DNA from: Eledone cirrhosa | Taxonomy: Eukaryota | Assembly (NCBI GenBank): GCA_964016885.1 | Contig: OZ024741.1 | Location: 405,976,001-406,040,000 of the forward strand | Direction of reading: 5' to 3' | Length of the DNA: 64,000 bases | Position numbers and translations under genes: made by a program | The notes under the pieces: generated by a model | Seen by the model: only the letters and a program-made list of their open reading frames with translations | Told to the model about the DNA's origin: nothing | Databases searched by the model: none | Part shown: positions 53,750 through 58,000 of the stretch, piece by piece | How the letters are laid out: each line of letters begins with the position of its first letter | How positions within the stretch are numbered: position 1 is the stretch's first letter

Positions 53750-54402
53750 TAAAGAATTAGTATATCGAGTAACATATATATACACAGATGCATACTTATG
53801 TTAGCAAATATATAGGTTTTGTCTTAGTAACTATGTGGTTCAATGCATGGGGTTGCAGAACAATAATATGAGAGACGTAAAATAAGAAAATTATAAAATT
53901 AACTTACTTACTTAAATTTCACTCCCAACTAATTAGTTTCTGAAAGGGATTAAACGTACTATCCGAAGAACGCACGGAGAAGCCTTTCGTCATCAGGGAA
54001 GTCTATTCTCAGCCAAGTTTCCAGGCAACACGTGGACACAGGGAACTTATACAAAAATAATTCAGTGGATGGAAAAAGCAAAGCGAGGACTAATTCCAAG
54101 CCATTGATAAAATCACTGCCTACTGCGTCGATGGCAAATTCAAAAGAATCAATCACGTGGCATCGAGGTCAATCAGTGGATAGTGGTTTGTTAGTAAGAC
54201 AGCAGCCGTACTGCTACTATAGCAGCAGTCTAGGCCATTTTTGCTCGACATATAATTTTGGAGATAATTATAAGACAAAACCTATATATTTGCTAACATA
54301 AGTATGCATCTGTGTATGTATATGTTACTAGATATACTAATTCTTTATAATTATCTCCAAAAGTAAGTTAATTTTATAATTTTCTTATTTTACGTCTCTC
54401 AT
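53750..54402 (-). mobile_element. ~520-nt ORF-less HHR unit plus two inverted fragments, related to the 56.5-58 kb units
   Basis: Unit 53750-54271; 54271-54362 and 54363-54402 are reverse complements of parts of it; flanked by (TA)n. Confidence 0.8.
53923..54000 (-). ncRNA. Type I hammerhead ribozyme
   Basis: Minus strand: TTCC CTGATGA cGAAAGG..CCTTTCa GAAA CTAATTAG TT GGGA; palindromic stem III ACTAATTAGT. Confidence 0.8.
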
Positions 54403-55864
54403 ATATATATATATATATATATATATTTATATATATATATATATATATATATATATATATAGAGAGAGAGAGAGAATGATTAGGTATCGAGAGAGAGAAG
54501 AGAATGGAAAGATGGTCGATGCATATATTTAGTTGCCAATAGTTTATGTGTGCTCAATACTCGTGCCTACAGGGTTAAATATTAGAGGCGTCAATATATA
54601 GTGGGCGAGAAAAATTACGCAGAGCGATTATAAAGGAAATGATTACAAAGAGTTTAAAACCGTTAAAACATGTTTATAATATATATATATATATATATAT
54701 ATATATATATATATATATATATATATATATATATATATATATATATATATATATATATATATATAATATATATATAGTAATAATAATAAATTTGAAGACT
54801 AAAATCCAAAGAGGGCTCGATAAGGATAAATATATATCAAATATATAAGAACCGTAGAGCAAATATTTATTAAAATAACAGATTAAAGTTTCAGCAAAGA
54901 ATCGCTGCTTTCACCCTTAACGGGATCTTCTGAAACTAACAAAGTCAAACTGTGAACGCAGAAGTGGATATTTCAAAAAACGTTGCAACCGGAGGAAGAC
55001 AGGAAGACGATACTTTAGTTCGTGGAAACGTTCGCTGGCAAAGAACGGGAAAAAACGAATAATACGTCATTAATAGGAGCGGTGAAAAACAATTACGCGC
55101 AAAGACAGAACCACGTTTATGGTATAAAAGAGGTCGTAGACTAATGTTCTCTTAGGTGGTGCATAGAGACGTTCTCTGGCAATGAACGAAAAAACGAAGA
55201 AAATAAGTCATATGTGGAGCGTGGAGAACAATAGCACGCAAAGACAAAACCACGTAAATGGTATAGCAGAAGTCGTAGACTAAAATTCTAACTAGGAGAC
55301 CAAATGAATCTCCGCTACAGAGTTAAGAACAAAGTAAATAAATACAATACAGAAGTAATAGAAATAAATAAATACATACACGCAAACAAATACGTACATA
55401 CACAAGCATACGCAAAAACTTACCATAGGTATACAAAACCCCACACATATAAATATGTGTGTGTGTGTATGCGTGTATACAAATAAATAAATAATTATAT
55501 AAACGTATATAAATAAATAAATACGTATATAACAAGCGCACACACATACCTACATATAAATACACGAATGTTCGGAGACGTAAGTCAACCAAAACATGAA
55601 GTACACATATACACACACCCACCAAACTTACGAACCTGCATACTCACACAGACGCAAAACTCCCGTATACACATAGCCAAACCATATGTACCAGAATATC
55701 TAAAACTATACGCCATAACAATCAAATATACGTACGAGAAGGTATACGTACCTTCACAAAACATACGGGTGATATATACTTACCTATGCAAATAAGTAAA
55801 GGTATAAACAAAACATATACTTAGCTCCCACATCAAGACGTAAAATATCCACGTATAGATCGTC

Positions 55865-56288
55865 CTATCCGTTAGGGTATAACGTGGGGCTGTAATACAG
55901 GAAAGTTTTGTGCAATTTATGTTTACAAGCCGAAATTGCCTCAGATTTTTTGTTTAAGATGTGGTCTGTGGCGTAGAGTATTTCCAGGGCCTCAGTGGCG
56001 CAGAGGTCACATGGTCTTTTATTTCCGTTATACGATCTAGCCCTAGTTAGGATCTCCCAGTGTAACTTATATTGGATGTGGTTGTCTTTTAGACTCCAGA
56101 TATAAGCTGAAAGTGACGTCATATTCTTTCTTAGAGGGTAACGAACAGAATGGGTATGCATGTAAAGACGCTGCTTGAAACTATTGGCGGTTAACCCTAT
56201 GTAGGCCCTACGGGACGTGGGTGTTACAACCTTACATTTGTAGACAATGTTGCTAGAGAGGCATTTCCCGGATAGGGGGCAATCCTTT
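55865..56288 (-). pseudogene. GIY-YIG endonuclease domain (C-terminus of a Penelope-like ORF), 5'-truncated but with an open frame
   Basis: CPLSGKCLSSNIVYKCKVVTPTSRRAYIGLTANSFKQRLYMHTHS..TSLSAYIWSLKD..WEIL..CDLCATE..LNKKSE.ISACKH. Confidence 0.9.
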
Positions 56289-56390
56289 GCCAGCGAACGT
56301 TTCCACGAACCAAAGTATCGTCTTCCTGTCTTCCTCCGGTTGCAACGTTTTTTGAAATATCCAGTTCTGCGTTTACAGATTGACTTTGTT

Positions 56391-56441
56391 AGTTTCAGAA
56401 GATCCCGTTAAGGATGAAAGCAGCGATTCTTTGCTTAAACT
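56391..56441 (+). ncRNA. Hammerhead-like fold with atypical core CAGAAGA; sister copy on the minus strand at ~54886-54936
   Basis: AGTTT CAGAAGA TCCc gttaa GGAt GAAA GCA gcgattctt TGC TT AAACT. All three stems form, but U4 is replaced by A. Confidence 0.5.
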
Positions 56442-56533
56442 TTTATCTGTTATTTTAATAAATTAATACATATATATATATATATATATATATATATATA
56501 TATATATATATATATATATATATATATATATAT

Positions 56534-58000
56534 ATATGAAAGACGTAAAATAAAAAAATTTTAAAAATTAAAAATCAACTTACTTACTAAAATTTTCACT
56601 CCAACTAATTAGTTTCTGTAAGGGGATAAATATAGTTAAATAATATAACTATAGAGAATTCCTTACGTCATCAGGGAGTCTATTCTCAGCTAAGTTCCCA
56701 GGCGATGCGCGGACACTAGGAACCCATATAAAAATAATAATAATTCAGTGGATGGAAGAAAGCTAGCGAGGACTAAATTCCGGAGCACTGAAAAATTCAC
56801 TGCCTCTGGTCAGTGGCAGATTCTAAAGAATCAATGACGTGACACTGAGGTTAATCAGTTAGGAGCGGGGGGGTATTATGACAAGAGCCTACTACTACCA
56901 TGAATCAGCAGTAAATTTTGGCATGTTTTGCTCAACAAATAATTTGGAGATAAATATAGAGAATTAGTACATTTACCACCATATGTGTACAGATGTTCAC
57001 CTATGCTAGCAAATATATATGTTATGTCTTAGTACCTTTGTGGTTCTATGCAGGGGGATGCAGAACAATTATATGAAAGACGTAAAATAAGAAAATTTTA
57101 AAAATTAAAAATCAACTTATTAAAATTTTCACTCCAACTAATTAGTTTCTGTAAGGGGATAAATATAGTTACATAATATAACTATAGAGAATTACTTACG
57201 TCATCAGGGAGTCTATTCTCAGCTAAGTTCCCAGGCGATGCGCGGACACTAGGAACCCATATAAAAATAATAATAATTCAGTGGATGGAATAAAGCTAGC
57301 GAGGACTAAATTCCGGAGCACTGAAATAATTCACTGCCTCTGGTCAGTGGCAGATTCTAAAGAATCAATCACGTGACACTGAGGTTAATCAGTTAGGAGC
57401 GGGGTGGTATTATGACAAGAGCCTACTACTACCATGAATCAGCAGTAAATTTTGGCAAGTTTTGCTCAACAAATAATTTGGAGATAAATATAGAGAATTA
57501 GTACATTTACCAACATATGTGTACAGATGTTCACCGATGCTAGCAAATATATATGTTATGTCTAACTGATTAACCTCAGTGTCACGTGATTGATTCTTTA
57601 GAATCTGCCACTGACCAGAGGCAGTGAATTTTTTCAGTGCTCCGGAATTTAGTCCTCGCTAGCTTTATTCCATCCACTGAATTATTATTATTTTTATATG
57701 GGTTCCTAGTGTCCGCGCATCGCCTGGGAACTTAGCTGAGAATAGACTCCCTGATGACGTAAGGAATTCTCTATAGTTATATTATGTAACTATATTTATC
57801 CCCTTACAGAAACTAATTAGTTGGAGTGAAAATTTTAGTAAGTAAGTTGATTTTTAATTTTTAAAATTTTCTTATTTTACGTCTTTCATATAATTGTTCT
57901 GCATCCCCCTGCATAGAACCACAAAGGTACTAAGACATAATATATATATTTGCTAGCATAGGTGAACATCTGTACACATATGTTGGTAAATGTACTAATT
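56534..58000. mobile_element. Tandem dimer of a ~533-bp ORF-less HHR unit followed by an inverted partial third copy (retrozyme/pLTR-like)
   Basis: Units start at ~56534 and ~57071 (ATGAAAGACGTAAAATAA); inverted copy 57564-58000. HHRs at 56599-56678 (-), 57132-57211 (-) and 57747-57826 (+). Confidence 0.85.
57747..57826 (+). ncRNA. Type I hammerhead; same motif on the minus strand at 56599-56678 and 57132-57211
   Basis: CTCC CTGATGA cGTAAGG..TATAGTTA..TAACTATA..CCTTACa GAAA CTAATTAG TT GGAG. Confidence 0.85.

Follow-up and report, generated by a model that had tools for sequence, protein, structure and literature searches.

We describe a family of non-coding hammerhead repeats, hereafter U, in a 64,000-nucleotide stretch of the Eledone cirrhosa genome (assembly GCA_964016885.1, contig OZ024741.1, positions 405,976,001 to 406,040,000 of the forward strand). 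This whole stretch is called the window, and all positions below are counted from its first letter. U is a repeat without an open reading frame (ORF) that carries hammerhead ribozyme (HHR) motifs and ends at two fixed 3' sites. It is probably a gutted Penelope-like element (PLE) of the Hydra clade, copied in trans by the reverse transcriptase (RT)-endonuclease of an autonomous relative. Judged from its sequence, U is likely a non-autonomous mini-PLE of Hydra type and a new member of the animal retrozymes that lack long terminal repeats (non-LTR retrozymes).

A structure-based scan found four type I HHR motifs of one family, with cores at 53996, 56674 and 57207 on the minus strand and at 57751 on the plus strand; cleavage is predicted after 53927, 56603, 57136 and 57822. 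The sites at 56603 and 57136 are 533 nt apart, and the descriptor was matched by none of 3000 dinucleotide shuffles of each U unit. The hammerhead motifs reported in a preliminary description of this DNA, which was made from the letters alone, are thus confirmed. The motifs are as follows:

53921..54002, minus strand: type I HHR of subfamily 1, with 6-bp stems I and II and a palindromic stem III; predicted cleavage after 53927.
56598..56679, minus strand: type I HHR of subfamily 2; predicted cleavage after 56603.
57131..57212, minus strand: type I HHR of subfamily 2 whose stem II lacks one pair; predicted cleavage after 57136.
57746-57827, plus strand: HHR in the inverted arm of subfamily 2, the third HHR copy of that insertion.

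The two tandem HHRs (cores 56674 and 57207) fold at -15 to -20 kcal/mol. Stem III of the U motifs is a 10-nt palindrome which forms no hairpin by itself but is predicted to pair between molecules at -11.4 kcal/mol; a palindromic stem III is described as a layout suited to dimeric cleavage (PMC4209133). With the minimal HHRs of PLE repeats, as presented in the same paper, U has in common an extra nucleotide between A9 and G10.1, the G10.1-C11.1 pair, a long stem II, a short stem I and the palindromic stem III, whereas the added nucleotide between C11.1 and G12 and the loop II of 37-39 nt set it apart.

U units are 520-533 nt long (GC 0.35 in 56001-58000) and fall into two subfamilies, 76% alike by blastn; in a separate comparison, 423 of 499 aligned bases agree. 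Between them the HHR core and stem III are invariant and loop II has diverged, while stem II differs by one compensatory pair, in agreement with the earlier claim. A further predicted hairpin lies in the non-coding body (57344..57382, minus strand); two neighbouring pairs in it differ by compensatory changes from one subfamily to the other, although only two sequences are compared here. The longest ORF beginning with ATG has 29 codons' worth of amino acids (29 aa) in the 533-nt unit and 49 aa in the subfamily 1 unit. No ORF remnant was detected in U by tblastn with 154 endonuclease and RT proteins of PLEs at E<=0.05, and no tRNA module was found in it. The earlier label "ORF-less" therefore holds for the U units, but the interval as a whole (53750-58000) contains a GIY-YIG endonuclease fragment at 55865-56284. 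In Rfam, the window gave no match at the gathering score, and between 53000 and 58800 no HHR family appeared among 50 matches at E<=10, so that the HHRs of U went unrecognised. The exact HHR pattern of U had no match in viral and metagenome contigs.

To compare the copies, the U map was numbered from the base after HHR cleavage. The closed map reads, in order, HHR, end B, hairpin 1 (hp1), end A, hairpin 2 (hp2), an ATG stub, about 270 nt of non-coding sequence, and again the HHR. The two insertions in the window consist of four arms:

53751..54274, minus strand: long arm of subfamily 1, one full turn; its 3' end is A, against (TA)n at 53660-53751.
54272..54404, plus strand: inverted short arm of subfamily 1; its 3' end is B, against (TA)n at 54401-54461.
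56534..57563, minus strand: long arm of subfamily 2, 1.93 units in tandem; its 3' end is B.
57564..58002, plus strand: inverted arm of subfamily 2, 440 nt; its end is A, against (TC)n at 58000-58114, followed by (TA)n at 58114-58164.

It was found that the outer ends of U take only two values, B at 66 nt and A at about 178 nt past the cleavage site. On the map, the long arm of subfamily 2 runs from 107 through two HHR sites to 66 and its inverted arm from 274 to about 178; the long arm of subfamily 1 runs from about 178 through a full round to about 178, and its inverted arm from 105 to 193 and, after a skip, from 28 to 66. Both insertions have one A end and one B end on opposite sides, with the variable 5' ends joined head-to-head, and both show an inverted 5'-truncated copy together with a one-sided tail. 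All outer ends face a microsatellite: three of the four lie directly on (TA)n and the fourth reaches it via (TC)57. No arm stops at an HHR site. A target-site duplication of more than 4 bp was sought, and both flanks of U are microsatellite.

Several claims of the preliminary description can be refined from this layout. The tandem dimer at 56534-57563 is a head-to-tail repeat with copies 97% alike and HHRs 533 nt apart on the same strand, but it comprises only 1.93 units and its second HHR has lost a stem II pair; the adjoining inverted arm carries a third HHR copy. The inverted fragment of the first unit does cross the end-to-start junction, that is junction A, by 15 nt (54272-54360), but it then skips about 350 nt including the HHR at 54360/54361 and runs on to 54404. 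The permuted starts do differ on the closed map, yet they are not free, being two fixed recurring sites with one on each side of each insertion. Differing starts had also been read as evidence of a circle, and this is not supported, as the same two-site tail occurs in autonomous Hydra elements and two RT start sites are described by Frangieh et al. (PMC11167929).

The U pattern is the known "tail plus inversion" of PLEs, whose copies are described as partly tandem, with a 5' copy in inverted orientation and a tail on one side only (PMC8557442, PMC3846280). The tail has been explained as the stretch between two internal RT start sites (PMC11167929). It is about 112 nt long in U versus 30-40 nt in Hydra elements as given in PMC8557442, and about 60-70 nt in the Hydra-type loci analysed here; the distance of end B from the HHR is comparable to that in these loci. 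On the other hand, both U ends have a TA microhomology of 4-5 nt within the unit. This would fit a free circular-RNA, replicon-like retrozyme that any RT opens at arbitrary A/T-rich microhomologies, with the hairpins described below as chance look-alikes. Such a retrozyme would also agree with the stable fold of the circular unit (z = -4.3 against 60 shuffles) and with hairpin scores that are not significant. We regard it as very improbable, because subfamilies only 76% alike use the same two ends despite many other TA-rich stretches, each insertion has one of each, and an endonuclease-bearing PLE next door (insertion X, below) obeys the same end rule.

Two separate arms ending at B start at nearly the same point, map 107 (57563) and map 105 (54272), with n = 2; these 5' starts are possibly a transcript start or an RT stop. 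Private changes in the part shared by three arms number 6, 4 and 1, an imbalance too small to interpret. Introns were considered at two places and dropped: a GTAAGT 13-17 nt past the HHR had a match between HHR and ATG in none of seven Hydra leaders, and the skip of about 350 nt in the inverted arm does not have GT-AG ends.

The link to the Hydra clade comes from its autonomous members. Hydra-type loci from other organisms were collected by an endonuclease-alignment scan, and the best 80 of 289 confirmed stretches were used. Of the 64 loci for which at least 150 nt were available downstream, 40 have a type I HHR in sense orientation no more than 1200 nt from the endonuclease, and its short stem III is laid out as in U; stem III is fully palindromic in 11 of 49 HHR motifs from these loci. 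The HHR spacing is 2486 and 2386 nt in two full-length loci, compared to 533 nt in U. All seven loci whose 5' HHR was inspected contain one or two bulged hairpins between the HHR and the start codon, formed by a 4-bp outer stem, a 2-nt 3' bulge and a variable inner stem. A hairpin pattern that requires inner pairing has 37 matches in the 8,254 nt that follow HHRs, compared with 35 in the other 422,554 nt. The pattern without the inner-pairing demand gives 37 distinct hairpins, or 33 after removal of four near-duplicates. In these 33, the first three inner pairs are formed in 88 of 99 cells, against a mean of 50 and a maximum of 66 in 5000 shuffles that are uncorrected for kinship; only 29 or 25 cells form when the bulge is set to 1 or 3 nt instead of 2. 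A covariance model built from the 33 hairpins has 70 matches in the 80 loci; in the alignment fitted to this model 98% of the cells pair and 63 cells have changed on both sides, which is reached by 0 of 500 shuffles. The hairpins are also visible in two published Hydra consensus sequences.

Autonomous Hydra elements likewise have a tail with two end sites. Matching locus ends to full leaders gave 22 rows, from which four full leaders and four contig ends were removed to leave 14 mappable ends. Ten of these stop 1-6 nt before a hairpin, seven of them 2-6 nt before hairpin 1 and three 1-5 nt before hairpin 2.

Look-alikes of these hairpins occur in U directly behind its two ends:

53838..53861, minus strand: hp1 of subfamily 1, a bulged hairpin directly 3' of B.
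54243..54264, minus strand: hp2 of subfamily 1, degenerate, directly 3' of A and followed by a 2-codon ATG stub; not the minimum-energy fold.
57043..57066, minus strand: hp1 of subfamily 2, a bulged hairpin.
56930..56950, with a second copy at 57464-57484, minus strand: hp2 of subfamily 2, followed by a 9-codon ATG stub.
57896-57919, plus strand: hp1 in the inverted arm of subfamily 2, a bulged hairpin.

In both subfamilies hp1 stands 3-4 nt behind B, after the microhomology, and hp2 stands 4-7 nt behind A; the ATG frame of the stub after hp2 is the place where Hydra elements begin their ORF. With these look-alikes counted as hairpins, the order HHR, hairpin 1, hairpin 2, ATG is common to U and Hydra-clade PLEs. 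Hairpin 1 is the predicted fold in both subfamilies and is invariant between them. When single units are searched with the model built only from Hydra hairpins, hp2 and hp1 come out on top in both subfamilies (ranks 1 and 2, among 13 sites in one and 12 in the other). Position and rank are suggestive, though not proof, that the U hairpins may have been kept from a Hydra-type leader.

The assignment to the Hydra clade is also in line with published features of this clade, namely HHRs and (TA)n targets (PMC8557442). According to the same source, U further shares with Hydra-clade PLEs a sense HHR near the 3' end, a short palindromic stem III, a tail at one end and an inverted 5' copy. U differs in being without the RT-endonuclease ORF, in its HHR spacing (533 versus about 2400 nt), in its long loop II, in a C-A apposition and in its diverged hairpins.

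Under the reading of U as a mini-PLE, the enzyme would nick both strands of (TA)n. A trans-acting Hydra enzyme would dock on the bulged hairpin and start complementary DNA 2-7 nt to the 5' side of the hairpin, where the sequence is rich in U and A. With one strand primed at hp1 and the other at hp2, two apparent start points and an inverted arm would result, from a template that would exceed one unit in length and be uncut at the HHR. Transposition in trans is plausible in that pLTR (pseudo-long terminal repeat) sequence is reported to suffice for it (PMC3846280). The earlier suggestion that a circular or multimeric RNA was copied into (TA)n sites is therefore retained for the Penelope-like manner of copying, for a template longer than one unit and for its intact HHR site, but the start points are not supported as evidence of a circle.

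Three sources of such a template were weighed. A 533-nt circle ligated after the predicted dimeric HHR cleavage is favoured, though at somewhat less than an even chance; the retrozymes of corals and mussels are known to form RNA circles (PMC7229834). Uncleaved read-through RNA is a more doubtful candidate, and template jumping an unlikely one. Since priming 5' of a hairpin omits the hairpin from the new 3' end, linear templates would shorten in each round. Linear copies only shorten, yet the family is old enough to have subfamilies 76% alike, and therefore a length-restoring step is needed, which favours a circle or a template jump.

We tentatively extend this to the whole clade: the telomerase-like RT of Hydra PLEs may dock on a duplicated bulged hairpin with covarying stems and start complementary DNA a few bases 5' of each copy, which would give rise to the tail, and U may be the smallest self-renewing unit, with two hairpins and a dimer-type HHR on one RNA circle. 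A hairpin-guided start recalls template positioning in telomerase.

A number of observations weigh against these proposals. The hairpin scores in single U units are only 3.8-7.2 bits (E 0.15-1.1) and are not significant, and with the Hydra-only covariance model run over the whole window at E<=10 the hairpins of U and X were not reported. The relaxed hairpin pattern was drawn up after U had been viewed, and hp2 is not the minimum-energy fold. Among the mappable Hydra-locus ends, 4 of 14 fall elsewhere and the ten concordant ones come from only three families. The HHR of U is atypical: the base of its stem II shows a C-A apposition, which occurs in none of the 49 motifs of the Hydra loci. No parent with sequence similarity to U was found in the window or in the 80 Hydra-type loci of other organisms. 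As for the ribozyme, HHR cleavage is reported to be dispensable for insertion in vitro (PMC11167929), and one of nine Xenopus dimers cleaved while eight did not (10.64898/2026.07.22.740005).

The window does contain a PLE of the Hydra clade, called X, immediately next to the U dimer:

54780..56284, minus strand: insertion X, a 5'-truncated Hydra-clade PLE with the end of the endonuclease, a 3' untranslated region with 139-bp repeats, an HHR-like motif and a hairpin at 54815-54860.
55865..56284, minus strand: C-terminal GIY-YIG endonuclease fragment of Hydra type, about 139 aa.
56285..56463, plus strand: 3' end of X copied in inverted orientation, 96% identical to 54865-55043.
56466..56537, no strand: (TA)36 between X and the U dimer.

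The endonuclease fragment of X has 4601 relatives at E<=0.001. Its long relatives combine an RT with a C-terminal endonuclease and have the RW, DKT and CxCx5C motifs, and these motifs and the C-terminal endonuclease are features of the Hydra clade (PMC8557442). A Naiad or Neptune identity was ruled out by the same C-terminal position and motifs in the full-length relatives. In the 180-aa frame at 55865-56407, codons 1 to 40 were set aside as inverted arm rather than endonuclease. A second Hydra-type endonuclease fragment, frameshifted and adjoining (TA)n, lies at 44254-44797 on the plus strand. Pfam assigned no family to either fragment, and no RT of the Hydra clade was found anywhere in the window.

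X and U have no sequence similarity beyond chance. The HHR-like motif of X (54885-54945 on the minus strand and 56380-56445 on the plus strand) has A in place of core U4 in both copies and one further defect in each. X also has two fixed ends (54780/56463), which recur in a small relative, X-mini, at 51866/51980. The same A/B end rule holds in four insertions of two other families of the window, namely X, X-mini and the insertions of family Z at 52064/52278 and 61110/62278. Family Z (52064-52278, 61110-62278 and 21211-21296) consists of small palindromic (TA)n insertions with a clear Hydra-type hairpin (model E 0.0005-0.0014), in which no canonical HHR core was found. A lone Hydra-type hairpin stands at 54563-54588 (minus strand), in a 200-nt spacer between two microsatellites.

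The position of X bears on another possibility: an autonomous PLE that escaped notice may have a tandemly duplicated end region, with U being no more than its terminal repeat (pLTR plus leader) and all copies here being 5'-truncated ends. An endonuclease ORF indeed lies 250 bp from the U dimer on the same strand, and truncated ends are described as predominant among PLE copies (PMC8557442). The ORF belongs to X, however, which has an unrelated 3' end and is set off by (TA)36. An independent 3' end, HHR-like motif and inverted arm belong to X, which in sequence does not resemble U beyond chance; U is therefore not the pLTR of X. Moreover, in both subfamilies hp2 continues into non-coding sequence and the next HHR, while autonomous Hydra elements have a 700-aa ORF there.

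Public sequencing runs supply further evidence on this point. Six of the nine runs listed contain part of the U dimer, and none is recorded as RNA. One rotated U unit was mapped on four DNA runs from three studies with two organism labels, where U occurs in 2239 and 40 contigs and in 6219 and 4606 reads of restriction-site-associated DNA (RAD), with 28-30 of 30 bins covered. Runs X5 and X6 (shares 0.07 and 0.06) as well as X2, X3 and X9 were left aside. Depth peaks near end B and the HHR, which would suit a terminal repeat. Nevertheless, contigs bridge junction A: a variant at 56959 stands 32 letters from a contig end, and a contig of run X4 spans 56928-57083 with two differences. The loose ends that were covered carry only a diverged unit or low-agreement sequence, but these are just 24 of 469, which limits their weight for the mini-PLE reading. 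A genome in which all copies are pLTRs of an autonomous Penelope element, the case that the preliminary description had set against its own proposal, was not seen, and we consider the terminal-repeat explanation improbable. By these runs U is a multi-copy family, and its two insertions in the window show it as monomer and multimer.

At five positions where the tandem units differ (56836, 56871, 56924, 56979 and 57194), the other letter is found in 96-100% of the depth of run X1, so the differences between the tandem units are private to this copy, arisen by mutation or through an error in the assembly, and the units were alike at first. Run X1 may be related to the source of the window. Six pile-ups of RAD read ends near A, B and the HHR (56742/45, 56962, 57070, 57097, 57140) were discarded, as all of them are AATT library cuts. 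Joints of "back about 533" in contigs are a product of the unit rotation and were not counted for tandems or circles.

The copies must also be set against a dead minisatellite, derived from a PLE end and amplified at the DNA level by unequal crossover or duplication, in which the HHR and hairpins are relics. This route is discussed in 10.64898/2026.07.22.740005, and one HHR copy and hp2 are degenerate. It is highly improbable here: the short U copies lie scattered, with their arms in head-to-head inversion, and stop at (TA)n as recent PLE insertions do, and the HHR core and hp1 are invariant with compensatory stem changes between the subfamilies.

When compared to the animal non-LTR retrozymes (PMC7229834, 10.64898/2026.07.22.740005), U has in common the non-coding tandem type I HHR units, the low GC, and the proposed PLE-driven mobility and pLTR origin. 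Its unit of 533 nt is within the range of 51-972 bp given in 10.64898/2026.07.22.740005 and above that of 150-450 bp given in PMC7229834. Unlike the described retrozymes, U ends at two fixed sites with an inverted arm, and a candidate hairpin of the leader links it to a single PLE clade. With Poseidon_Ac of Anolis, studied in vitro (PMC11167929), it shares two internal RT start sites (putative in U) that define the tail, an AT-rich target and an association with a stem-loop. Poseidon_Ac, as reported there, has its start in an AC-rich stem-loop that is part of the ORF, with no homology to the target, whereas U ends 5' of a duplicated, putative bulged hairpin in a non-coding leader, with TA microhomology.

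The existence of U is unsurprising in itself, as retrozymes have already been proposed as non-autonomous PLE derivatives, and the argument that animal retrozymes derive from PLE repeats is made in 10.64898/2026.07.22.740005; U bears on which enzyme copies such elements and what it recognises. The candidate signal is a hairpin of 20-30 nt, from the position of which both ends of an insertion can be predicted. If true, an animal retrozyme would have been assigned both its mobilising enzyme and the cis-signal involved, and the PLE tail would be explained for the whole clade. Neither the bulged hairpin signal nor a link between Hydra elements and retrozymes was found in print, in a search that largely left out subscription papers and Repbase reports; in the text and supplement of PMC8557442 the words "hairpin" and "stem-loop" occur 0 times.

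The window as a whole is AT-rich DNA of animal type in which (TA)n, (TC)n and (GATA)n are abundant and several non-LTR elements lie nested. It harbours no fewer than five HHR families in 40 kb. A 472-bp tandem dimer at 25697-26639 (minus strand) carries two minimal type I HHRs (26460 and 25988) and represents a separate family of HHR units of about 470 nt; a diverged relative of 469 nt with an HHR at 24726 lies at 24528-25061 (plus strand), similar in patches of 72-75%. The two are likely another retrozyme-like family. Two further HHR families adjoin (TA)n, at 26773, 52378 and 51733 on the plus strand and at 23904 on the minus strand, and 52327-52443 is an inverted repeat with an HHR at its centre.

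Positions 1-19112 are occupied by a 35-bp satellite with 546 copies, 95% alike, with a strong strand skew. A transposase fragment, which we take to be mariner-like, is found at 20231-20707. From 21687 to 51300 extends a cluster of nested non-LTR elements with AP-endonuclease and RT, many with a (GATA)n end and one near full length (45774-51300); the cluster presumably resembles the Tx1 clade. Finally, a tandem of 336-345 bp at 58804-59675 is a 2.5-mer without HHR core.

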